Made by a program: the position numbers and the translations under genes. The notes beneath the pieces were generated by a model. That model searched no databases and had not been told where the DNA came from. It saw nothing but the letters and a program-made list of their open reading frames with translations. From a virus (Duplodnaviria > Caudoviricetes), in IMG/VR virus record IMGVR_UViG_3300020283_000004, positions 1 to 58,353 of that record: a DNA stretch of 58,353 nucleotides. The stretch is one strand, 5' to 3'. This document shows positions 2,671 to 49,422 of this stretch, one piece after another. Numbering within the stretch: position 1 is the first letter of the stretch; each line of letters begins with the position of its first letter.

Positions 2671-3027
2671 ATTATCTCCGTAACATGTTTGTGTTATGGG
2701 GGACAGTGGCCTACCATCCCCCATGATCAGGTTGAGCCAAGTTGAAAGCCAAGTAACCCATGAATGCTACATCAGAGTGCAGAGGTGGAACGAGCATTAA
2801 CTTACGAGCGTTTCCTAGGAAAACCAAGTAGGTCAACCACGAACTCTTAACTTATCGTTCAGGATCATATCATGGTTGCTATAACAGGACTGCAACCCTA
2901 TGGAGCAACCAAGCGGAGACAATAGCTAGCAATATGTCACACGCTAGTTGCAACCAATTCAACAACCTATATTATATGTATATATATTTAATTATAATAA
3001 TATATATAAATATAAGTAGGTTGTTCA

Positions 3028-16780: not shown

Positions 16781-16917
16781 TGTACGGAACCCCAATGAAA
16801 AAGAAGAAAAAGAAAACAGGTGTCATGAGTTATATGAAGAAGCCTGTTCGTGGTACTAAAAAGACCATGATGAAAAATGGTGCTAAAAAAACCATGATGA
16901 AGAAAAAAACTAAATAA
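16777..16917 (+). CDS. Lys/Met-rich micro-protein (46 aa)
   Basis: ATGA and TAATG overlaps at the two ends. Confidence 0.65.
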   Translation: MMYGTPMKKKKKKTGVMSYMKKPVRGTKKTMMKNGAKKTMMKKKTK

Positions 16918-37808: not shown

Positions 37809-37823
37809 TTATTGTTTGTAAGC

Positions 37824-40800
37824 ATGTCTAAACTCACTGATTACCTAAATACTCTCCCAAGAGGTACAAGACCTTGGGATGCCTGGAAGACAAGAGAGCT
37901 CTATCTTAGAAGACTTCTTGATGACGATCAGTACAGTGAACAAGAGAAGAATCGTCTGATAGGGCATTACATTGGGCAGGAGCCTGAGAATGTAGACGTA
38001 TCGAACACAGTTGCTGGGTACTTAGATCGCACGGCTGCGATGACTAAGAACTCTGCGATGATTGGGGTAAATCAGTTACGTCAATATTTCAATGAGCAAG
38101 AGTATTTTGGTGAACGGGATGAAGTAGACGCAAAAGCTGCTAGAGAACAAGTCACCAAATATAGAGGACTTCAAGAGTCGATCCCAAGAGATGAAGGGGC
38201 ATTAGGTGTTGCCCAAGATGTTGTTTCATCACTCCCATCCTTGATAGAAAACTTAGCTGCATCAGTAACAGCAGGGTATGCAGGGGCTAAGGTAGGTACA
38301 GCTATCGGTACTATGATTGCCCCAGGTGCAGGTTCTGCCATAGGGGCAGCTACTGGGTTTGTTTCTGGGATACTTGCAGGTTTAGGGGTCAACGCTGCGA
38401 TGGAAGCGTCATCTGCATTTGATGATAACTCCAGAAATGAAGAAATTAGAAAAAGACTTGTCAACAAGTATGGAGATAATAAAGACCTAGTTAACCAGGC
38501 ACAGAGAGCTATCGCATTAGAAGCTGCGGAAGCGGTTATGAAGGGTAACGTGTTTGACCCAACGAACATAGCTGTTGCCATGGCTAACACAAAAGGTGGT
38601 CAGCTATTCAAAGGATTTCTTCTAGGTAAGGCAGGCATTAAGCCTAACAAGTTTAGAAATAAATTAAGGGTAACTAAAGACACGATAGGGGGTGTAGTAC
38701 AAGAAGGAGTCCAGGAGAGTTACCAAGATGCACTACAGCAATCACAAACACTTTATCAGATAGCAAAGCTCGATGCAGAAGCAGATCCAGACTCACAAAA
38801 AGTCCCAGACATCCTTGATGTCGTCAAAGATATCGATTATGGACAGACTGCATATGCTGGCTTGGTCGGTGGTATTGCTGGGGGTGGTTTCTCTGGCTTG
38901 CGGTCTGCTGGTGGGAAGTTTGCTGATCGTAAGCGTGAGAAGATACGTCAAGAGATTCGTGACGCAATAGACAGTGGGGACTTAGATCGGTTCAATGACA
39001 CTCGTAATTTCTATCCTATTGACTCCGCAGAGAGAGTTGTTATTGAGCAAGAGATTAAAGATGTTCGTGAAGGTATTCACGTTGACCATAGAGTCGATAA
39101 AGACCTCACACGCTATGACATGCGTAACCAACTCGCTAATGCCATGGCAGAAGGTGAGAAAGCTTTCGATTCCTTTATAAGAAAGAACAGAAATAATCCT
39201 CTCTTCTCTGATGTAGTTAACGACTACTTCGATAAGCTTAGATCTGCACAGGCTACAGCGCAGTCACAAGCAGAGATTGACAGAATTCGCAATCAAGTTC
39301 TTATTGGTTATAACCCAGGTGAGTTTAGTCTAGAAGATCTCAAATTTAGAGAGGGAGAGGGCGGGATCACGGATCTTGATGAAGCGAGAAAAGTAACCCC
39401 AGGTGACCCATCAGGCAGGTTTGGTGGGAATCAGGGTATTGTTGTTGATCAGGCATACACACCTCCAGAGTTTGCACAGAGAACCCCAAGAGAAAGAGGG
39501 CAAAGACAGCTAGAGGATCTGACAATTCCTCTCAGCCAAAGACAACAAGCTAGAGCACAGGAAGAAAAAGCAACCATAGATCTAGATAAAGCTACTAAGT
39601 CTCAACTTATTAGCTATATCAACGATGACAAAGTTTCAAAAGGCTTAGAGATTACTGGGGAGGACACTAGATCTTTAATGAAACTCAGGAAGGCTAAGCT
39701 GAAAGAAATGGCTAAGTCTATTGAGGCCCAGAACGTAACCCCAACAACTGATACCCAAGAAACAACAGCATCTACTCAAGAACAAGTTGATGAGAATGTA
39801 GAAACAAGTCAGAGAGAACCAGAACCAGCACCTGTCCAGACGGAGGAGGAAAAACAACAGATAGAAGAGTTAAGAGAACAATTCTTAACAGAATACAATG
39901 AGAGTGATTCTCAATTTAGACGAAGGGATCGTGATGTAAAGGGAAATCCTTTCAAAGAAATCAGTTTAAGAAAGGGAGATGAGGAACAAGTCTACACAAG
40001 AGAAGACCTTAATGAACTAGGCTACCTCACTGATACTGGTGAGATTATAGATGCAAAAATACAGAATGACCTAAAAGAAAGATTTCCCGAACCAGAACAA
40101 ACGCTCGATCAAGGGGATCAGCAAACAGATACAGAACAACAACCTGAGCAACAAGTTACAGAACCAGAAGATGGTGATACCACAGCGCAAACTGAAGATG
40201 TTGTTACTGAGACTACTGTAGAAGAGGAACAAGACCAAGCGGAACCAAGTCTTACCGCAGATGATATTACAAACTTCATATCAATATTAAGACCCGACCC
40301 AAACACATACATTGTAGACGCAAGAAAGACAAAAGATGGAACAGATCTGGATGCGGTTGAAGTTGCCGTTTTTAACGATAAAAAACAAGAGTATGACCAA
40401 TATGAGATTGATCCGATTAAGGCTAGAGCACTTGGAATTGTTAATCAGGAGAATGAAATTGATGAACAAGCTGTTGCGGATTATGCCAGTCGATCAACTG
40501 AGCCCGAAACGGCACAAGGAGATACTCAAGCAACTCGTACAGAAACTGAAGACGCAGAGGGGGTGACAGTAGTACCTGTACAGAGTTCTGTACTTCCTGG
40601 TCAAGCTGAGATTGATGAGGATGTTGAACCTGAAACAAGAGAGCAGAGAGCGCGAACTGAGAACAATGTAGCTTACATCAATGAAAGTGGGAGTGCCGTA
40701 GTCAACGAAGCTCTTGGGATTAAGAACTCTCAACAGCGTGCTTCACTGGCAAAAATGGCTAATGACCTTAATCTTCAGGAGCTAGAAGATCTTGATGGGG

Positions 40801-43800
40801 TTATTTTTATTAAGTCAAAGGGTAAAAAGAAAGATCAATTCAGATACAAAAAAGGCCAACTTGAATCAGGTAGAAATGATAAAGGCAATAACATCACAGT
40901 CTCAAAAAGCCTTGTCAATCGCCTCAAAGAGTATGCAGATCAGAATGATATAAAAGTTATAGTCATAGATGATGATGCCCCACTTCCTACTCTCGGTGCT
41001 GATTATAAGACTGAGAACTACCGTGTTGCGGTAGCCCAAACTTTCCTGAAAACGTTTGGTTCACTATCTGGGGAACAGTTTATAAGCAAGACAGATACTC
41101 AAGGACCAAAAATCTTCTCCGTTAATCCTGGAGAGACCCCTGTTGCTGGTGAATCTGTTCAAAAGACTGGTGGGTCAGATAGCCCAATGGCAGAAATTAT
41201 TGAGTTGGTTGCGAGTCAGGGAATACGTGATGGATATGTTGCCCCTGCTGAAACTGAAGGTGAGTTTGTTGTTAATCTTTACCTTGACGAAGAGCAAAAT
41301 GTTTCAGGTGTGGAAGGCCCAGCAATCAAGGCAATAAGAATCCCAATTAAAGGTGTAAGCGAAAGCAATCTTGTTGATTTTGTTGAGACACTAAAGAACC
41401 CAGAGTCTAAGACAGAGGTAAGAAGGGAGTCCCCACTCTTCAGCATAGCACCAAGCTCTGAAGTAGGTTCAGGTCGGTATGATCGCACAGTCGTTGATGA
41501 AGCCGTTGCCCAGTTCACAAGAGAATACAGAGGTGGTGCTCTACTAAACTACAAAGTCTACGATACCCCAGAGCAAGCACAGGCAGAAACAGGTATCGAG
41601 TTCAATGCTAATGCTAGGGGTGCGTTAGTAGGGGATCAGGTCTATCTGTTTGCTAAGAACCTCAGAGACTTGCAGACAGCAAGAAAGGTTATCTTTCACG
41701 AATCAATTGGTCACTACGGAATCAGAAACGTTCTTGGGGATGATGACTTTAACAGCTTTCTTGATCGTGTCATAGCGGAGAGAAAGGTTGATGTTGATGC
41801 CAAAGCGAAGAAGTTGCTCAAAGCTAAAGTTATCAAGCAAATAGACAATGATGGGCTCAGATTAGCAGCAGAAGAACTTGTTGCTGAGGCAGCAGAAGGA
41901 AGGGCGAACAAGAGCTTCATTGATAAAGTCATTGAGATCATCAGTGACTTCCTATCCAAGCATTTTGGAAGAGTACAGCCTGATGAGATTCGGTCCATGA
42001 TTCTCAAAGCAGAGAGAGCCTTCAAGACTGGGGAGCTTTACTTTGGTGCAGATCGATCTGCTTATGGTGACTTCTTCAATGCTCAGTATTCACTAGGAAT
42101 AGTGATGGACAAGGGGCAAGTACCCACTGAGTTGCAAAGAGCCTTGGACTATGTAGGCAGGGAACTCGCAATAGATGGAAATCTAGATACATGGGAAAGG
42201 CTTAGGGACACCTATAGCAAAGCTATAGAGCAGAGAGATATGAACGTTCAGGATAAAATCAGAGACTTACTGAATAAAGCCACATATCTTTCAATAAGAA
42301 AAGCATCAGAGAATGGTGGGTATTATGTACTTCCAGATGGGGTTTGGAGATTCCATGTCAACGACTTTGACAATGATGGTAACTTGTTATGGGACTTCAA
42401 GACTCTCCCAAAAGACTGGATTACTGGGGCAAGGGACAATGACTTTGCTTTTGACAACTTGTTTGAGTCAGAACAAAAGATAGTAGAGCTTGCCCAGCAG
42501 GGGTTGATTAAATACAACAAAGCAGAACCACACCCAAGGTTTGAAAGATACCCACAAGATGTTATTGCAATAAGACTTAGTGATTTTGTAGGGCATAAAG
42601 AACTCGAAAGGTTATACCCAGATCTCTTCGAGAGTGCAGAGATCGTATTCAAGATGCCTACAAGCAGACCTGTTAAATTCCTAGGCACTCCTGCTCTCGA
42701 AACTAGGCTTGGATCGGCAGGTTCAGCAAAATCAAAATTCGCAGAAGATGGTCGTGAAGTCATAACCTTTGAGATCAATGCAGAAAGCAACATCACTGAT
42801 GTTATGAGTACATTGGTGCATGAACTTACACATGGTTTCCAAACAGTAGGGAATGCTGCCATGGGTGGTTCTAGTGCAGTTGATTATGAGGGTCTTAGAG
42901 TATCAACCTACTCAGATATTTTACGTGCAGTCAATGAATCATTCGGCGCTCTGACTCCCGAAGAGAGAACCAGTCTTATTGACTACATAAAAAAACTGGA
43001 AGCCAATACAGAATCTCCACGCTATCAAAGAAAAGCTATCTTCAAAACTCAGGTTGGCGAAGAAATAAGACTTAGGACTGGTAGGTCATTCGCACTTGAC
43101 CAGGAGGTTGCTACGTCCTTATGGAATATCTACAACACTTTTACTGGGGACAAGACAGATAAATCTGCGTTCTGGTTTTATCAGTGGGCAGCCCAAAATA
43201 AAGCAACAGCAAAAGAAAGATTTGGTCAAGATTCTGATGAACACAATAGAGCAAAAGATGTTCATCGTCTTCTAGCAAACACATTCAATCGTGGTAACAG
43301 GTCTATATTTGATAGAAGATCACTGCTTCAGGCTCGTTCAGAAAACCCAATGAGAAGCATGGAGAACTACCAGTCTCTTCTTGGGGAAGTTGAAGCAAGA
43401 CATCACCAAAACCAGTTTCGTCAGTCGATCATAGCCCTGAGAGAAGGTGATATGGACACCTTCAGAAAGACTAAGGACGCTGGGGCATTGGCTCTTGGCA
43501 GAAGGTTGAGAATAAAGTTCAGTCCTGATGAAGAGCTTCAGATGCTTGGAGAGCAAAGCCAGCTAGTAGACCAGCCTGTATTCAAGATAGAGGATATGCT
43601 TGTTAAGTATCCTGGTCCTAACAAAAGCAACCCATCTCGTGAAGAGCAGATTCGGTACAGCATAGCAGAGAACGAAGATGTCCCGATCAGGTCTGAGAGA
43701 GAAAGCGGATCAGCCCCAACCTGGATGTCCCCAGAAGAGAAAGCCGTATGGATGAAGTTTGGAGATCCACATGCTGGTAAGAGTATAGGGGAGAAGTTTG

Positions 43801-46454
43801 GGAAGTGGAGAGAAAACTGGTGGACTAAAGTTCGTCAGGGCATGTTCGACAAGTTTGCCCCACTCAAGAATCTATCACCTAAGTCTTACATTTTAGCAAG
43901 AATGAGCCGTTCAACAGACGGACCTTTCTCTGCAATGTTCTCACTCGGTCATATCTTCATGGATGAGGATGGTGCGATTGATGTCGATACCTCCAAGAAA
44001 TCATTCGTAGAAAGCATGCGACCCCTTGGTCAAGACCTTGAAACGTTCCTACGTTGGGTTGCCTCTAATCGTGCCTACGACCTAAAGAAAGCACCCAAGT
44101 CAAGGGATGCCCTACAGTTTCTGAATGATGATGAGATACGAATAGGGATGAACTTCAATCGTGGGACTACAATCAATGCCGTAACTGGGCAGAAGGTATC
44201 TCGAAAGAAGTTGTTCGATGATGTGCTCAAGGACTTTCAAGCGGTTCAATCATCAATACTGGATCTCTCAGTCAAGGCAGGAGCAGTCAGTAAGAAGGAT
44301 GCCGACATATGGAGAAACCAGTTCTACGTACCTTTCTATCGTGTCTTTGACGAAGCCCCAACCAGAAGAAATGGTCCTGCTACTTTAGACAGTCTTGTTG
44401 GTCAGGATGCAGTTAAGAGACTCAGGGGGTCTGACAGGGGCCTTGCTGATTTATTGCACAACACGTTGATGAATTACCATCATCTCATTGATGTGTCGAT
44501 GAAGAACAAAGCAGCAACTCAGTCTATTAGAGATTTGGAAAAGATTGGTGGTGCAACAAGAGTTTCAAAGAAAGGCTTTCCACTTGAGGAAGGAGACAGG
44601 CAGGAGTTTGCTCAGGAACTAAATGATGCGGATGATAAACTAGAGTTTATCGCTGAACCAGATGCAGGGCAGACAGTCTACATACGAGAAGATGGGAAGC
44701 GTGCTTACTATAGAATCAATGACCCATTTGTATTGGAGGCATTGATGTCTATGAACTCGATTGAGAAAGACAACCCAATCTACAAAGTGCTGAGAACAAG
44801 TAAACGATGGTTTACTTATGCAGTAACAGCAGACCCTGACTTCAAGGTAGCTAACCTGATTCGTGACTCTATTGGGTCAATCGCAGTGGCCCCACTTGGG
44901 TATAACCCTCTTGCTAATGTGAAGAGAGGGTGGAGAGGAACGCAGAAAGACTCAAAAACCTACGCTAAACTTGTTGCAGGTGGGGGTTCTTTTATATTTG
45001 GGAATGTATCTGGGACAGACCCAACAAGTGAAGGAGCACGAAGATTAATAGAGAGTGGAGTAAAGTCTGAGTTTATTATCGATAGTCCAGACAAGTTGTC
45101 AGGATTAGAGAGAATGATGAAGACAGGTTGGAATCTAGCTAGAGGAGCATGGGGTAAGTACGAAGATGTGGGTACACGACTAGAGAATGTTAACCGTGCA
45201 GCTTTATACGAAAGACTCACAGACCCAAACAGAAGAGACAAAGATGGTAATAGAATAGCCCCATTGTCCCACCTTGAGGCTAGCTATGAGGCCAGAGATC
45301 TCATGGATTTTTCCAACACAGGAAGTTGGGGAATGATTCAGTACATTGCTCAGTGGAGTCCATTCCTTAATGCCAGACTACAAGGTGCATACAAGTTAGG
45401 AAGAGGTGCAGTTAGTGAGAACCAAAGAGTCCAGTTTGCAACAACGATGTTGGCCTACACAATGGCAGCTTTGGGGCTTTATCTTACACACATGGATGAT
45501 GAGGACTTCAAAGAAAGAGAAGAGTGGGATCGTGATACTTACCACTGGTTTAAGATACCAGGATTTGAACAGGCGATAAGAATACCAAAAGCCTTTGAGG
45601 TGGGTACAGTAACCACTATGGCAGAGAGAATGCTTGAGCAGGTGATCGATGAAGAGGCTACTGGGAAATTGTTTGCAGAGAGAATGCTATTTGCTCTGAC
45701 GAACACATTTGCGATGGACCTAAGACCTCAACTTCTACGCCCAATCATTGATATCTATTCTAATAAGAACCCATTCACAGACAGAGCCATTGAGTCTTTG
45801 AGTATGAATAACCTCAATATAGAGGAGAAGAGAAATGCTTATACCTCAGAGACTGCAACGCTATTATCCAGAATCAATGCAGATACAATAGGTTGGGATG
45901 CTGTGAACTTGTCCCCAGTACAAATAGAATATGCGGTTCAGGGAATGTTTGCCTGGATAGGGACATCTGTACTCGCAGCAAGTGACTCTATTGTAAGAAT
46001 GATAAATGGGAAGGAGCCCCCAGATAATGGGTTCAACTCTATACCTTTTGTTCCTTCAGGGGTGGGAGAGATAGTAGGTAGCTCAGTAAGAAGATTCTTC
46101 CCAGACATGGATAGCCCAAAGAGAAGCACTAAATATACGACTCAGTTCTATGAGCAACTGAAGGAGATGAACCAGACCTTTAGCACAATTCGTGAGCTAA
46201 GACAGCTTGGTGACATAGAGCGTGCCATGGAACTAGAGAAAGAGGAGAGAGTTCTGCTTCAATACAGAACAAGTTACAATAGAATACAGAGAAGAATCTC
46301 TAAGTTGAGGACTCAGATGCAACGTATCGCCAACGATCCGAATATGGATGGGGATCTGAAGCAGATGCGAATAGACCGCATGCAAGCGTTGATTAATGCT
46401 AACATCAAAGTCCTTCAACGTAGAACCAATCAAAGATTAGCAGAAGCTAGCTGA
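37824..46454 (+). CDS. Giant polyvalent (ejected) protein with zincin-like motifs and LPD38-like C-terminus
   Basis: HESIGHYG, DGVWRF, HELTHGFQ, LLGEVEAR, YVPFYR, PFLNARLQG, RIPKAFEVG and LSP.QIEY motifs; ATG 37824. Confidence 0.82.
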   Translation: MSKLTDYLNTLPRGTRPWDAWKTRELYLRRLLDDDQYSEQEKNRLIGHYIGQEPENVDVSNTVAGYLDRTAAMTKNSAMIGVNQLRQYFNEQEYFGERDEVDAKAAREQVTKYRGLQESIPRDEGALGVAQDVVSSLPSLIENLAASVTAGYAGAKVGTAIGTMIAPGAGSAIGAATGFVSGILAGLGVNAAMEASSAFDDNSRNEEIRKRLVNKYGDNKDLVNQAQRAIALEAAEAVMKGNVFDPTNIAVAMANTKGGQLFKGFLLGKAGIKPNKFRNKLRVTKDTIGGVVQEGVQESYQDALQQSQTLYQIAKLDAEADPDSQKVPDILDVVKDIDYGQTAYAGLVGGIAGGGFSGLRSAGGKFADRKREKIRQEIRDAIDSGDLDRFNDTRNFYPIDSAERVVIEQEIKDVREGIHVDHRVDKDLTRYDMRNQLANAMAEGEKAFDSFIRKNRNNPLFSDVVNDYFDKLRSAQATAQSQAEIDRIRNQVLIGYNPGEFSLEDLKFREGEGGITDLDEARKVTPGDPSGRFGGNQGIVVDQAYTPPEFAQRTPRERGQRQLEDLTIPLSQRQQARAQEEKATIDLDKATKSQLISYINDDKVSKGLEITGEDTRSLMKLRKAKLKEMAKSIEAQNVTPTTDTQETTASTQEQVDENVETSQREPEPAPVQTEEEKQQIEELREQFLTEYNESDSQFRRRDRDVKGNPFKEISLRKGDEEQVYTREDLNELGYLTDTGEIIDAKIQNDLKERFPEPEQTLDQGDQQTDTEQQPEQQVTEPEDGDTTAQTEDVVTETTVEEEQDQAEPSLTADDITNFISILRPDPNTYIVDARKTKDGTDLDAVEVAVFNDKKQEYDQYEIDPIKARALGIVNQENEIDEQAVADYASRSTEPETAQGDTQATRTETEDAEGVTVVPVQSSVLPGQAEIDEDVEPETREQRARTENNVAYINESGSAVVNEALGIKNSQQRASLAKMANDLNLQELEDLDGVIFIKSKGKKKDQFRYKKGQLESGRNDKGNNITVSKSLVNRLKEYADQNDIKVIVIDDDAPLPTLGADYKTENYRVAVAQTFLKTFGSLSGEQFISKTDTQGPKIFSVNPGETPVAGESVQKTGGSDSPMAEIIELVASQGIRDGYVAPAETEGEFVVNLYLDEEQNVSGVEGPAIKAIRIPIKGVSESNLVDFVETLKNPESKTEVRRESPLFSIAPSSEVGSGRYDRTVVDEAVAQFTREYRGGALLNYKVYDTPEQAQAETGIEFNANARGALVGDQVYLFAKNLRDLQTARKVIFHESIGHYGIRNVLGDDDFNSFLDRVIAERKVDVDAKAKKLLKAKVIKQIDNDGLRLAAEELVAEAAEGRANKSFIDKVIEIISDFLSKHFGRVQPDEIRSMILKAERAFKTGELYFGADRSAYGDFFNAQYSLGIVMDKGQVPTELQRALDYVGRELAIDGNLDTWERLRDTYSKAIEQRDMNVQDKIRDLLNKATYLSIRKASENGGYYVLPDGVWRFHVNDFDNDGNLLWDFKTLPKDWITGARDNDFAFDNLFESEQKIVELAQQGLIKYNKAEPHPRFERYPQDVIAIRLSDFVGHKELERLYPDLFESAEIVFKMPTSRPVKFLGTPALETRLGSAGSAKSKFAEDGREVITFEINAESNITDVMSTLVHELTHGFQTVGNAAMGGSSAVDYEGLRVSTYSDILRAVNESFGALTPEERTSLIDYIKKLEANTESPRYQRKAIFKTQVGEEIRLRTGRSFALDQEVATSLWNIYNTFTGDKTDKSAFWFYQWAAQNKATAKERFGQDSDEHNRAKDVHRLLANTFNRGNRSIFDRRSLLQARSENPMRSMENYQSLLGEVEARHHQNQFRQSIIALREGDMDTFRKTKDAGALALGRRLRIKFSPDEELQMLGEQSQLVDQPVFKIEDMLVKYPGPNKSNPSREEQIRYSIAENEDVPIRSERESGSAPTWMSPEEKAVWMKFGDPHAGKSIGEKFGKWRENWWTKVRQGMFDKFAPLKNLSPKSYILARMSRSTDGPFSAMFSLGHIFMDEDGAIDVDTSKKSFVESMRPLGQDLETFLRWVASNRAYDLKKAPKSRDALQFLNDDEIRIGMNFNRGTTINAVTGQKVSRKKLFDDVLKDFQAVQSSILDLSVKAGAVSKKDADIWRNQFYVPFYRVFDEAPTRRNGPATLDSLVGQDAVKRLRGSDRGLADLLHNTLMNYHHLIDVSMKNKAATQSIRDLEKIGGATRVSKKGFPLEEGDRQEFAQELNDADDKLEFIAEPDAGQTVYIREDGKRAYYRINDPFVLEALMSMNSIEKDNPIYKVLRTSKRWFTYAVTADPDFKVANLIRDSIGSIAVAPLGYNPLANVKRGWRGTQKDSKTYAKLVAGGGSFIFGNVSGTDPTSEGARRLIESGVKSEFIIDSPDKLSGLERMMKTGWNLARGAWGKYEDVGTRLENVNRAALYERLTDPNRRDKDGNRIAPLSHLEASYEARDLMDFSNTGSWGMIQYIAQWSPFLNARLQGAYKLGRGAVSENQRVQFATTMLAYTMAALGLYLTHMDDEDFKEREEWDRDTYHWFKIPGFEQAIRIPKAFEVGTVTTMAERMLEQVIDEEATGKLFAERMLFALTNTFAMDLRPQLLRPIIDIYSNKNPFTDRAIESLSMNNLNIEEKRNAYTSETATLLSRINADTIGWDAVNLSPVQIEYAVQGMFAWIGTSVLAASDSIVRMINGKEPPDNGFNSIPFVPSGVGEIVGSSVRRFFPDMDSPKRSTKYTTQFYEQLKEMNQTFSTIRELRQLGDIERAMELEKEERVLLQYRTSYNRIQRRISKLRTQMQRIANDPNMDGDLKQMRIDRMQALINANIKVLQRRTNQRLAEAS

Positions 46455-46952
46455 TCAAGTATCTTCGGGGAGCTCTACATTCCTGCGTAGGCTCCTTCGT
46501 TTCTTCTTCATCATACTCCCAAGCATAGCTGTACGTGCCATTGCATCGGCATGTTGCTTTCTCTGGTCATCATCCAGAGCCTGAATGTCTGTATGCTGAA
46601 GCCGAGTAGCTGATCGATCCAAAGCCTTCTTTAGCTCTGCGTGCATCTGGTGTTCAGCCACGGATGCCTGATACTCAGGCTCAACATACGTATACCCAAC
46701 TCCACGTTTGGCTATCAGAAGAATCTTGTGATCAGTCAACAACATCTCCTTAAAGTTTTCAATCATGGTTAAGTATATCAGTTGAGTCTGCTGATACTTC
46801 TGTGTGGTTGTCTCTGGGGTAGGAATCTCCAACCCAAAGTTCTCGTACAACCATTCTTTCGTTACGACATCTCCAGGTTTAAACCCTTCCTCGATGAAGT
46901 TCTGCACTGCTTGTTTCCATTGTGGAAACAGCATCATCGTTTTATCTTCCAT
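46455..46952 (-). CDS. Accessory protein of the RAMP-array operon (possible winged helix + helical tail)
   Basis: AGGAG RBS just after the array; KRGVGY hairpin motif; basic C-terminus. Confidence 0.75.
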   Translation of the reverse strand: MEDKTMMLFPQWKQAVQNFIEEGFKPGDVVTKEWLYENFGLEIPTPETTTQKYQQTQLIYLTMIENFKEMLLTDHKILLIAKRGVGYTYVEPEYQASVAEHQMHAELKKALDRSATRLQHTDIQALDDDQRKQHADAMARTAMLGSMMKKKRRSLRRNVELPEDT

Positions 46953-46974
46953 AAACTCCTTGTGTTAAGTGTTA

Positions 46975-47708
46975 TCCGTTGCGCTCATTTCCTGTCTATT
47001 CAGTTTATATCTGCTCAGATACATTCCTTTCTTTTCTGATGAGATCGCTTACTTTATCTTCAGATGAGCTCCGTTCAAATACGCTCCGTTCAATAAGTTA
47101 AACCGTTCATTTCCAATCATTTGTGGGCTCTTCATTTCGGCTCCTCTTCGGTCAATTCATCTGTTCTCCGATCAATAATTTAAACCGTTCTTTTCCGTTC
47201 AGGTCCACTGTGCTGAAGTGTGCTCCCTTTTTTTCATTTGTGGTCCAATGCAGTGTGTTCCCCTACCCTGCTCTCAATGCTATTCTGATCATCTCCAATC
47301 CACTCCGATCCCTTCCATTTAATAAGTTAAACCGTTCCATTCAGGTCCACTACCCTGCTCTCAAATCGATTCTGATCATCTCCAGTCCACTCACTTCTAT
47401 TCCGTCCTCTTATTTCAAATCCTTTCCGTTTAATAAGTTGAACAACCAATCCGATCCTGTATCATCCACTCAGATACGCTGATTTGCGGTCAAGTCCCCT
47501 GTATTCCCCTGCGGTCCTTTCCCGTCCATTCCAATCAATAAAACATACCATTCCAATCCGCTACGCTCACCTGTATTCAAATCAAATCATCTCCTGTGAT
47601 GTCCAATCCGTTTAATAAAATTAACCGATCCATTCTTCTCACTTCCAGTCCGCTGTCCTCTGCTGTATTGTCCTCCAATCATCTCCCGTGTTTTACAGTC
47701 CGATTAAA
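46975..47708 (-). repeat. Seven-unit 5-nt-periodic array (RNA sense NN-GGA-like); putative guide RNA precursor
   Basis: On the + strand, 130 of 138 pentamers start with T and 98 have C second. Unit boundaries read T(C/T)AATAA-A/T-rich-ACC. Confidence 0.93.
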
Positions 47709-48273
47709 CAACCTCAACAGTGAAACGACCGTAAGAGTTCATGCGGTTCTCACACAACCCTTCGATCTCTCCGCACAACTCAAGGATCTCTATCACCTCA
47801 GACATGTTGATGATCTCCTCATTAACAGTAAGAGTGAAGGTAATCGACCACTCGTGAAAGATAGGACGACAAGTCATCACCTTACTGTTCTTCACGTTGA
47901 CCGATCTCACATCCCTGAACTTCTCGTTAGCCCATAATCCTTCGATATCTTTTGGGCCATCATATTCTATTGGGACTTCAGGTTGAGCTATCTGCACACC
48001 GCGTTGTATCTGTTTACCACGCTTTGAAAGCTTAGCCCCTGAACGGATCATTGCTCTCAATGCGTACCCAGGCATGACAGGTCTTGTCCCATCATGATAC
48101 AGTCCACCTTCCCACTTCAGACGATAGATCATCTCATGATCCTCATCTGTCTTAGTTCTCTTACCAGTATACTGTTTCAACTCTTTAGACAGTGGGTCTA
48201 AAGGGTTAGCTAATCTATCACTCTGCACCATTAACGGACTGACCCCTGTCAGCTTTATTTGCTTACGTTCCAT
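47704..48273 (-). CDS. Stand-alone RAMP (Cas7-like) protein
   Basis: IKLTGVSPLMV, PVMPGYALRAMIRSGA, CRPIFHEW, and terminal G-loop-like CGEIEGLCENRMNSYGRFTV; AGGAG RBS. Confidence 0.8.
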   Translation of the reverse strand: MERKQIKLTGVSPLMVQSDRLANPLDPLSKELKQYTGKRTKTDEDHEMIYRLKWEGGLYHDGTRPVMPGYALRAMIRSGAKLSKRGKQIQRGVQIAQPEVPIEYDGPKDIEGLWANEKFRDVRSVNVKNSKVMTCRPIFHEWSITFTLTVNEEIINMSEVIEILELCGEIEGLCENRMNSYGRFTVEVV

Positions 48274-48728: not shown

Positions 48729-48877
48729 AGCCCAGGCTCGCTAAAACCTGGGCTAAGGAACGAAAATGAAAACGCACGTTTATATCCTGAGCAGGGCCAT
48801 GAGCAACCTGCCTCAAGGGTGACTGAAAAAGGAGAGCAATTCAGCCACCCACAAAGAGGAGATATAAACGCTGTGCG
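48729..48877 (-). ncRNA. Structured leader upstream of ssb
   Basis: A 10-bp stem (48777-86/48861-70) encloses two hairpins, with a further hairpin at 48729-54. Confidence 0.55.
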
Positions 48878-49394: not shown

Positions 49395-49422
49395 ATAATA
49401 AATAATACATGAGTAATGTCAA
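49395..49422 (-). promoter_or_regulatory. Putative sigma70-type promoter for the XRE-ssb-RAMP region
   Basis: TTGACA-N16-TATTAT. Confidence 0.6.

Follow-up and report, generated by a model that had tools for sequence, protein, structure and literature searches.

The closest described relatives of the locus analyzed here are the systems named VIPR, for Viral Interference Programmable Repeat, CRISPR-related RNA-guided DNA silencers of phages that were first described in 2026 (10.64898/2026.04.26.720920). A VIPR locus comprises a ~20-kDa RAMP protein, Vipr, an accessory vap gene, and vrRNAs that consist of 9 to 16 YNNGG repeats followed by a 3′ tail. The NN bases of the repeats pair with double-stranded DNA, one base being skipped per repeat, and transcription is silenced; satellites, prophages, and rival VIPR loci are the natural targets. 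The same preprint distinguishes seven types and describes arrays of several architectures as well as alternative motifs for the repeat. Vipr is a small protein homologous to RAMPs and combines an RRM core with a thumb and a glycine-rich loop (10.64898/2026.04.26.720920, 10.64898/2026.04.26.720927), and one protomer occupies each repeat (10.64898/2026.04.26.720927). The rules of VIPR have so far been worked out largely on two type II systems, both of which read GGY. The present analysis concerns a stretch of 58,353 nucleotides (nt) of viral DNA, referred to below as the window, and the periodic tract at positions 46975 to 47708 in it. The window is the complete 58-kb genome of a marine phage, and the tract very probably serves a VIPR system as its guide-RNA array, in a variant whose repeats carry x-G-A (xGA) as the fixed part.

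According to this assignment, the minus strand of the array would be transcribed jointly with vipr (47704 to 48273) and vap1 (46455 to 46952). Vipr protomers would bind the RNA one per pentamer, gripping x-G-A (positions 3 to 5) and exposing the two variable bases. The exposed NN of one block would then jointly read a double-stranded DNA target as NN-skip-NN-skip, and the seven blocks would yield seven guides of 13 to 27 NN with footprints of 39 to 81 bp. Once bound, Vipr and guide would silence the transcription of a phage, prophage, or satellite that competes with this phage. The assembly of filaments, the rule of one skipped base, and silencing are carried over here by analogy with the systems of the 2026 preprints (10.64898/2026.04.26.720920, 10.64898/2026.04.26.720927), and rival mobile elements are the presumed targets.

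Anatomy of the pentamer array

On the + strand, the tract parses into seven blocks of 24, 15, 28, 21, 19, 14, and 17 pentamers. These add up to 138 units, with the single 4-nt unit of block 4 kept in register. The features of the locus, with the blocks numbered in RNA order, are as follows.

47704 to 48273, minus strand: vipr gene, 189 aa, predicted RAMP fold (phmmer match to PDB 36pp_D; phrog_4652; AF2/Foldseek)
46975 to 47708, minus strand: probable vrRNA array, 138 NN-xGA pentamers in seven blocks (sequence parse)
47624 to 47708, minus strand: candidate guide block 1, 17 pentamers, head UUUAA over the vipr stop codon
47547 to 47616, minus strand: candidate guide block 2, 14 pentamers
47445 to 47539, minus strand: candidate guide block 3, 19 pentamers; 4 bases are different in the orthologous block of the related contig L006
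47331 to 47434, minus strand: candidate guide block 4, 21 pentamers including a single 4-nt unit
47184 to 47323, minus strand: candidate guide block 5, 28 pentamers, the longest
47102 to 47176, minus strand: candidate guide block 6, 15 pentamers; shared with L006
46975 to 47094, minus strand: candidate guide block 7, 24 pentamers, without a GGU tail, continuing into the vap1 leader; one base is changed in the L006 copy
47095 to 47101, minus strand: linker UUAACUU
47177 to 47183, 47324 to 47330, 47435 to 47444, 47540 to 47546, and 47617 to 47623, minus strand: the other five linkers
46956 to 46961, minus strand: vap1 ribosome-binding site AAGGAG, immediately past the last guide block (sequence)
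46455 to 46952, minus strand: vap1-like accessory gene, 165 aa (homology to the genes after vipr in the phages Mijalis and LESphi2; phrog_5926)

In the RNA sense, which is that of the minus strand, the unit reads N-N-x-G-A. On the + strand, T comes first in 130 of the 138 units, the exceptions being six ACC and two GCT units, and this gives the minus-strand RNA an A once every five bases. The binomial probability of at least 130 such units out of 138, at the T content of the region itself, is 5.5e-48. The second position is C in 97 of 138 units, and 46 units are TCC. An initial annotation of this DNA, made from the sequence alone, had already proposed the seven punctuated blocks, and re-cutting the sequence reproduces its unit counts, its T-first, ACC, GCT, and TCC figures, and its heads, tails, and linkers as described below. 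Its enrichment of C at the second position also stands, although its figure of 98 is one too high. Information content modulo 5, the measure suggested there, amounts to 0.10, 0.08, 0.39, 0.70, and 1.63 bits for RNA-sense positions 1 to 5 over the 138 units. Position 5 is A in 130 units, with U found only in the six block-final ones. Position 4 (0.70 bits) is mainly G, and position 3 is G in 67 units, U in 41, A in 27, and C in 3. The trinucleotide G-G-A is present in 46 of the 138.

The blocks share a common punctuation. The head is AUU(A/G)A in six of them; in the first it is UUUAA and overlaps the stop codon with which the upstream vipr gene ends. Six blocks close with an NNGGU tail, and the seventh runs on into the next gene's ribosome-binding site. 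Five of the linkers between blocks are 7 nt long and one is 10 nt; the 7-nt linkers move the 5-nt register by 2. Blocks 4 (47331 to 47434) and 5 (47184 to 47323) have a near-identical run of ~10 pentamers in common, indicating that one of them apparently arose from the other by duplication with insertion.

The periodicity is nearly confined to this place. When 100-nt segments were slid over all 58,353 nt, 45 of 5,826 reached a single-base periodicity of 0.75 at period 5; 43 of these 45 lie within 46911 to 47641, and the other 2 barely attain the threshold. The array occupies a 751-nt gap (46953 to 47703) between two minus-strand open reading frames (ORFs), 47704 to 48273 (189 aa) and 46455 to 46952 (165 aa), and its periodicity is specific to the strand of these flanking genes. 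Three ORFs on the + strand overlap it (119, 113, and 85 aa); PHROG has no match for any of them, and coding sequence would not be expected to have a period of 5 nt.

The Vipr protein

The initial annotation regarded the upstream neighbor of the array as a RAMP-type protein, and both fold and sequence comparisons agree. In phmmer searches, residues 4 to 188 of the 189-aa protein match PDB chain 36pp_D, “SUSP1 Vipr protein,” with an E value of 4.2e-31, and a profile of 8 relatives retrieves the same chain (E value of 2.1e-47); no other match is significant. The two proteins are 37% identical. The protein also matches phrog_4652, a family of function not known (E value of 5.9e-49); a Pfam search returns nothing for it or for the 165-aa vap1-like protein. 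Its AF2 model has a pLDDT of 73.9, the low-confidence parts being the thumb (residues 121 to 136) and the G-loop (residues 174 to 180). The best Foldseek matches of this model in PDB are chains of type III Csm complexes (E value of 6.5e-4, probability of 0.98, TM score of ~0.4), and entries named Csm3 appear at ranks 18, 19, and 29. The model thus predicts that the vipr product is a RAMP with a Csm3/Cas7-like fold. Two readings of the array, TRAP-like ring binding and a G-quadruplex made by GG at every fifth base, were dropped after this protein partner had been identified.

Searches with tblastn find Vipr homologs in 130 phage records, all of them less than 60% identical, mostly in Felixounavirus-like coliphages and in Pseudomonas phage LESphi2. 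In both records that were opened, LESphi2 and Citrobacter phage Mijalis, period-5 arrays lie beside the vipr homolog, in the flanking gaps and on the same strand. The array is (GGCNN)n in LESphi2 and (NNGGT)n in Mijalis, the latter with conserved heads and with hairpin or pseudoknot tails. Overall, 53 of 57 vipr loci give a period-5 call on the vipr strand, and 4 (L017, L105, L122, and L123) give none or noise. A scan of the genome collection yields 43 vipr loci, none of them with more than 44% identity, so that no host can be named. Among 50,697 phage records, blastn finds no match to the locus.

The vap1-like accessory gene

The vipr homolog is directly followed by a gene for a 146- to 163-aa protein in LESphi2 and Mijalis. 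The 165-aa protein of the window is 30% identical to the product of that gene, with E values of 2e-19 for Mijalis and 5e-26 for LESphi2, and matches phrog_5926, again of function not known (E value of 1.1e-33). By tblastn, a vap1-like gene is found beside vipr in 41 of the 62 loci searched, the window (L003) included. In 35 of the loci other than the window, it lies within ~100 nt after vipr, whereas in the window the whole array separates the two genes. The AF2 model of the vap1-like protein has a pLDDT of 88.3. Its fold matches are weak (best E value of 0.043) and are mostly to winged-helix DNA-binding domains, in line with, but short of proof of, the published description of type II vap genes (10.64898/2026.04.26.720920).

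Relatives of the locus and turnover of guides

IMG/VR holds six contigs with 94 to 99% identical Vipr and eight with 42 to 51% identity. The close relatives L006 to L010 have the same heads, tails, and linkers, and their guide blocks are partly or wholly different. L006 shares three blocks with the window, differing at 4, 5, and 1 bases (counted manually from the block lists). One more of its blocks is a shorter version of block 4 of the window, and the remaining three are different. The blocks of L007 to L010 are almost entirely different from those of the window. In contigs from three other marine studies, the flanking genes are kept and parts of the array are skipped or replaced; one such contig has ~35 listed differences in 47584 to 47692, versus 3 in vipr. 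The relatives with 51% identity have xGC units and short A/U-rich linkers.

The 17 distinct block boundaries in the clade have linkers of 7 nt (12 boundaries), 10 nt (3), 6 nt (1), and 8 nt (1). At all of them, the last pentamer is W-Y-G-G-U and the next head is W-U-U-R-A; the regular expression used to find boundaries demanded GGT and a head, so that the free observations are the W-Y restriction and the linker lengths only.

A scaffold that is kept while NN diverges has the looks of a guide array and not of a decaying repeat. The initial annotation had likewise argued against a decayed microsatellite, and the comparison of relatives bears it out: those with 94 to 99% identical Vipr keep the heads, tails, linkers, and period, and differ in variable bases and cassettes. 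The tract might nevertheless be seen as a decaying microsatellite, or as a signal that acts at the level of the DNA (an origin or bent DNA, for instance), without RNA function. Its location in a replication/recombination module would fit this view, as would the output of Tandem Repeats Finder, which detects almost nothing here (two tiny fragments of the array), because the units are too dissimilar to each other. With the scaffold conserved over differing variable bases, with period-5 arrays found next to vipr homologs both in phages unrelated to this one and across genomes from many phyla, and with a periodicity restricted to the strand of the flanking genes, the likelihood of such an explanation is close to nil.

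Two further arrangements are seen among the relatives. A 245-aa N6/N4 DNA methylase gene (PF01555, E value of 4.9e-37) is inserted between guide blocks in L008 (5012 to 5749) and L010. In the relatives with 51% identical Vipr, represented by L011 (990 to 2600), one or two xGC guides separate vipr from vap1, which is followed by a long array; the A/U-rich linkers are conserved and ~20 nt long, and the layout is intermediate between those of SUSP1 and the window.

Repeat motif and RNA contacts

In SUSP1 Vipr, H17 and D177 contact G1, R138 and W178 contact G2, and E71, M72, C173, and R179 contact Y3, whose pocket “sterically excludes purines” (10.64898/2026.04.26.720927). Residues of the window protein were numbered by alignment to SUSP1 Vipr, in which 13 of 14 published residues fall on the stated letters. 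The remaining position, 175, is V in the RefSeq record of SUSP1 (L019, NC_028808.2) and is given as T175 of the pyrimidine pocket in the preprint (10.64898/2026.04.26.720927). All five DNA-contact residues (K33, R39, K82, G87, and K88) are identical in the window Vipr, and R138 and R179 are retained, all seven being among the published contacts to DNA and backbone (10.64898/2026.04.26.720927). The G-loop GDWRP is replaced by CENRM.

Several observations weigh against the assignment to VIPR. The array departs from the canonical GGY, given the A at position 5 in 130 of 138 units and a G at position 3 in just 67. The residues that read G1, G2, and Y3 are altered (H17Q, D177E, W178N, E71Y, M72A, and C173E), and binding of xGA RNA by the window Vipr, with A read in place of the pyrimidine, is presumed. 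A structured 3′ tail comparable to the pseudoknot of SUSP1 is missing from the blocks, and scans of the array reveal no promoter, terminator, ribozyme, or tRNA-like element between them. RNA coverage consists of contigs of one metatranscriptome run (X20) that span 36 nt of the array, with 5 differences, and 247 nt of vipr, and these contigs give evidence of neither transcription nor RNA ends. The seven full guides have no target in 150 sequences totaling 1.2 Mb (the phage's own genome, related marine viral contigs, and the 43 genome loci): the best matches with a 1-nt skip cover 0.56 to 0.73 of NN, which is chance level, and are no better than the 0- and 2-skip controls in the same set. Finally, the NN-spectrum test described below is indirect and is biased by the semiconserved handle pentamers included in it.

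As to the motif, the VIPR preprints allow “a related consensus” besides GGY; therefore, it is the canonical motif that the window fails, not the VIPR family. Further, the RNA-contact residues co-vary with the repeat motif, as judged from the aligned loci. The CENRM loop is found in 4 of the 57 vipr loci, all belonging to the clade of the window, and only those 4 are GA-periodic. The G-D-(W/Y/F)-R-P and C-E/D-Y variants accompany GGC or GGT arrays, C-D-S-R-P accompanies GTT in 3 of 3 loci, and N17 together with G-T-F-R-K accompanies AGT in 3 of 4. This co-variation supports, short of proof, a window Vipr that reads xGA. The GTT-periodic arrays beside the CDSRP Vipr come from Clostridia-type metagenome-assembled genomes (MAGs; L118, L126, and L133), and the AGT-periodic arrays beside the N17/GTFRK Vipr come from Bacteroidales and one Bathyarchaeota MAG (L137, L139, L140, and L143).

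The frequent GGA invites another comparison. CsrA-type regulators bind a GGA motif, and Csr-type sponges present it in hairpin loops. The array could in principle be a decoy or sponge that titrates the Vipr of a rival phage or a CsrA-type host regulator, a role for which its 46 G-G-A units would be suited and which recalls the satellites that redirect phage VIPR via solo vrRNAs (10.64898/2026.10.15.759431). We consider this very improbable, as the array is part of a vipr-vap1 operon of its own, co-varies with changes in the RNA-contact residues that are unique to this Vipr, turns over its variable bases among relatives as guides do, and yields an RNA without hairpin loops of the kind in which Csr-type sponges display GGA.

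A more specific proposal, plausible but tentative, is that the marine clade has respecified the Vipr code through E71Y, M72A, C173E, D177E, and W178N, such that A is read third and any non-C first, making the system orthogonal to GGY. Its guides would be tail-less and punctuated by 7 nt, with footprints of up to 81 bp, and would be cut out otherwise than by the published tails or ribozymes. If true, orthogonality to GGY systems would confer immunity to hijack by solo GGY vrRNAs of rivals. Orthogonal Vipr/guide pairs of this kind would matter for phage-phage competition, in which decoy vrRNAs could not hijack them, and for multiplexed tools.

Folding of the array RNA and possible delimitation of the guides

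The array RNA folds no more strongly than its shuffled versions (z score of +1.28; 18 of 20 shuffles fold at least as well), and it is unstructured, as expected for a protein-coated guide. Rfam searches at the gathering score and at E values of up to 1 give no family match and hence no hammerhead, and a tRNA scan of the array finds none. Promoter and terminator scans find nothing on the minus strand inside the array, with counts at the level of shuffles.

The seven blocks are probably cut apart at the linkers, by analogy with SUSP1. AU-rich single-stranded linkers could be sites of host RNase E. Separate guides are favored because the linkers shift the register, because blocks turn over as units, and because SUSP1 arrays yield discrete ~100-nt vrRNAs in small-RNA sequencing (10.64898/2026.04.26.720920). 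Alternatively, the VIPR RNA would not be cut into seven guides, and one or a few long transcripts would carry separate Vipr filaments, the linkers merely breaking the register. The scans that leave the 7-nt linkers and their surroundings without any promoter, terminator, ribozyme, tRNA-like, or hairpin element fit such a transcript. So does the vap1 ribosome-binding site directly past the last block, owing to which vap1 seems to need a read-through transcript, and no RNA ends have been observed in the 36 nt of array that the X20 contigs cover. We nonetheless judge an uncut transcript unlikely in view of the discrete SUSP1 vrRNAs, of the “staggered” arrays with abutting processed vrRNAs that a figure legend of the same preprint describes (10.64898/2026.04.26.720920), and of the gain, loss, and replacement of whole blocks among relatives, which fits independent units. 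Under the favored reading of seven separate guides, a compact tail-less array of long guides raises the question of how they are delimited.

Target searches and the NN spectrum

The published target criterion is a 1-nt skip with at least 80% of NN matched (10.64898/2026.04.26.720920). The target search tried 0 to 3 skipped bases; a skip of 3 returns the array itself, and otherwise the best matches cover 0.5 to 0.73 of NN whatever the skip, at the level of chance. There is no self-target in the 58-kb genome, where the best 1-nt-skip match covers 0.52 to 0.68 of NN, and no self-targeting is likewise reported for VIPR (10.64898/2026.04.26.720920). Besides the 1.2-Mb set, the seven full guides match nothing above chance in the phage's own genome plus 19 loci, nor in 100 loci (707 kb). 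With 587 ten-pentamer queries from the window and related arrays, 2 matches of 18/20 are obtained versus 1.45 expected by chance.

The spectrum of the 130 NN of the window is best fitted by codon positions 1 and 2 in the sense direction, at +20.1 bits over a uniform model. The antisense 1-2 register scores +11.5 bits, and the other four registers are negative, down to -31.2. The rarest NN dinucleotides are TA and TG. The same ranking of registers is obtained with 435 NN of the clade, with the SUSP1/Mijalis guides (+8.1), and with GGC-type guides. The spectrum weakly suggests targets in coding sequences, with the wobble base skipped.

Genome context

The window is a complete viral record of 58,353 bp with a G+C content of 41.9%, and the phage is found in marine metagenomes of several studies. 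The vipr-array-vap1 unit ends a minus-strand replication/recombination module that encodes a RecE-like exonuclease, Erf, a replication initiator, DnaB, a helix-turn-helix (HTH) protein, and a single-stranded-DNA-binding protein (SSB). Queries with DnaB, the HTH protein, and Erf return only the same few marine contigs.

On the + strand, 37812 to 46454 is an ORF for a 2,880-aa polyvalent protein with a “large polyvalent protein associated domain 38” (PF18857, E value of 2.4e-28) near its C terminus; its stop codon abuts that of vap1. The best promoter-like site in the region, TTGACA-16-TATTAT (11 of 12 positions; 49395 to 49422, minus strand), lies just past DnaB and before the HTH gene. A terminator-like hairpin with an 11-bp stem (48729 to 48754, minus strand) lies between the HTH and SSB genes. 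Other repeats in the window, unrelated to the array, are a TA-rich simple repeat at 2968 to 3014 and a 27-nt A-rich tandem repeat (2.2 copies) at 16855 to 16914.

Comparison with known systems

The window system shares its RAMP fold and, presumably, one protomer per guide repeat and bases flipped at a fixed period with the backbone of class 1 CRISPR systems (Cas7/Csm3 on crRNA). However, the CRISPR period is 6, whereas that of the window is 5 and is written into the RNA itself. The window contains no CRISPR repeat-spacer family, Cas6, Cas1/Cas2, or other cas genes.

The systems of Escherichia phage SUSP1 and of a prophage in Pseudomonas fulva, both type II VIPR (10.64898/2026.04.26.720920; structures, 10.64898/2026.04.26.720927), resemble that of the window in having a small RAMP Vipr, a vap1 homolog, and a phage-encoded locus. 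They also have period-5 repeats on the vipr strand, in which three bases are fixed and two vary, several guides per locus, and no self-targets. As both proteins are homologous to those of the type II exemplars, the system of the window is most likely type II-like. The fixed part is G-G-Y in SUSP1 and P. fulva and x-G-A in the window, where A is the best conserved base. Their vrRNAs have 9 to 16 repeats, whereas the blocks of the window have 14 to 28, 2 of 7 being within the published range. The SUSP1 tail/pseudoknot takes up ~40 nt; in the window, there is just the W-Y-G-G-U end, a 7-nt U/A-rich linker, and the W-U-U-R-A head. Since other architectures are published, a structured tail is a feature of a clade and not of the VIPR family, as far as the preprint describes them (10.64898/2026.04.26.720920).

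Arrays with a noncanonical fixed part have been reported as GAC/NN, CAC/NN, WGT/NN, and TGH/NN (10.64898/2026.10.21.760802), and NNNGG, YNNNG, and NNNNG repeats are given in the Methods of the first description (10.64898/2026.04.26.720920). The former resemble the array of the window in their period of 5, the Vipr-like fold adjoining the array, and a fixed trinucleotide other than GGY. An x-G-A motif with A best conserved is not among the motifs just listed, although TGH would include TGA; the xGA type may already be described in the published motif figures (10.64898/2026.10.21.760802).

The VIPR kind itself has thus been known since the 2026 preprints. What appears to be new here is an A in the fixed part with matching changes in the pocket, the long guides, and the tail-less punctuation by 7 nt. 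With this locus, VIPR would extend to a lineage of marine phages that is abundant and turns up in the metagenomes of several studies. Compared with the GGY-reading systems, an xGA scaffold that occurs with changes in exactly the residues that grip the fixed bases offers a natural test of how the repeat code is read and of orthogonal pairs.

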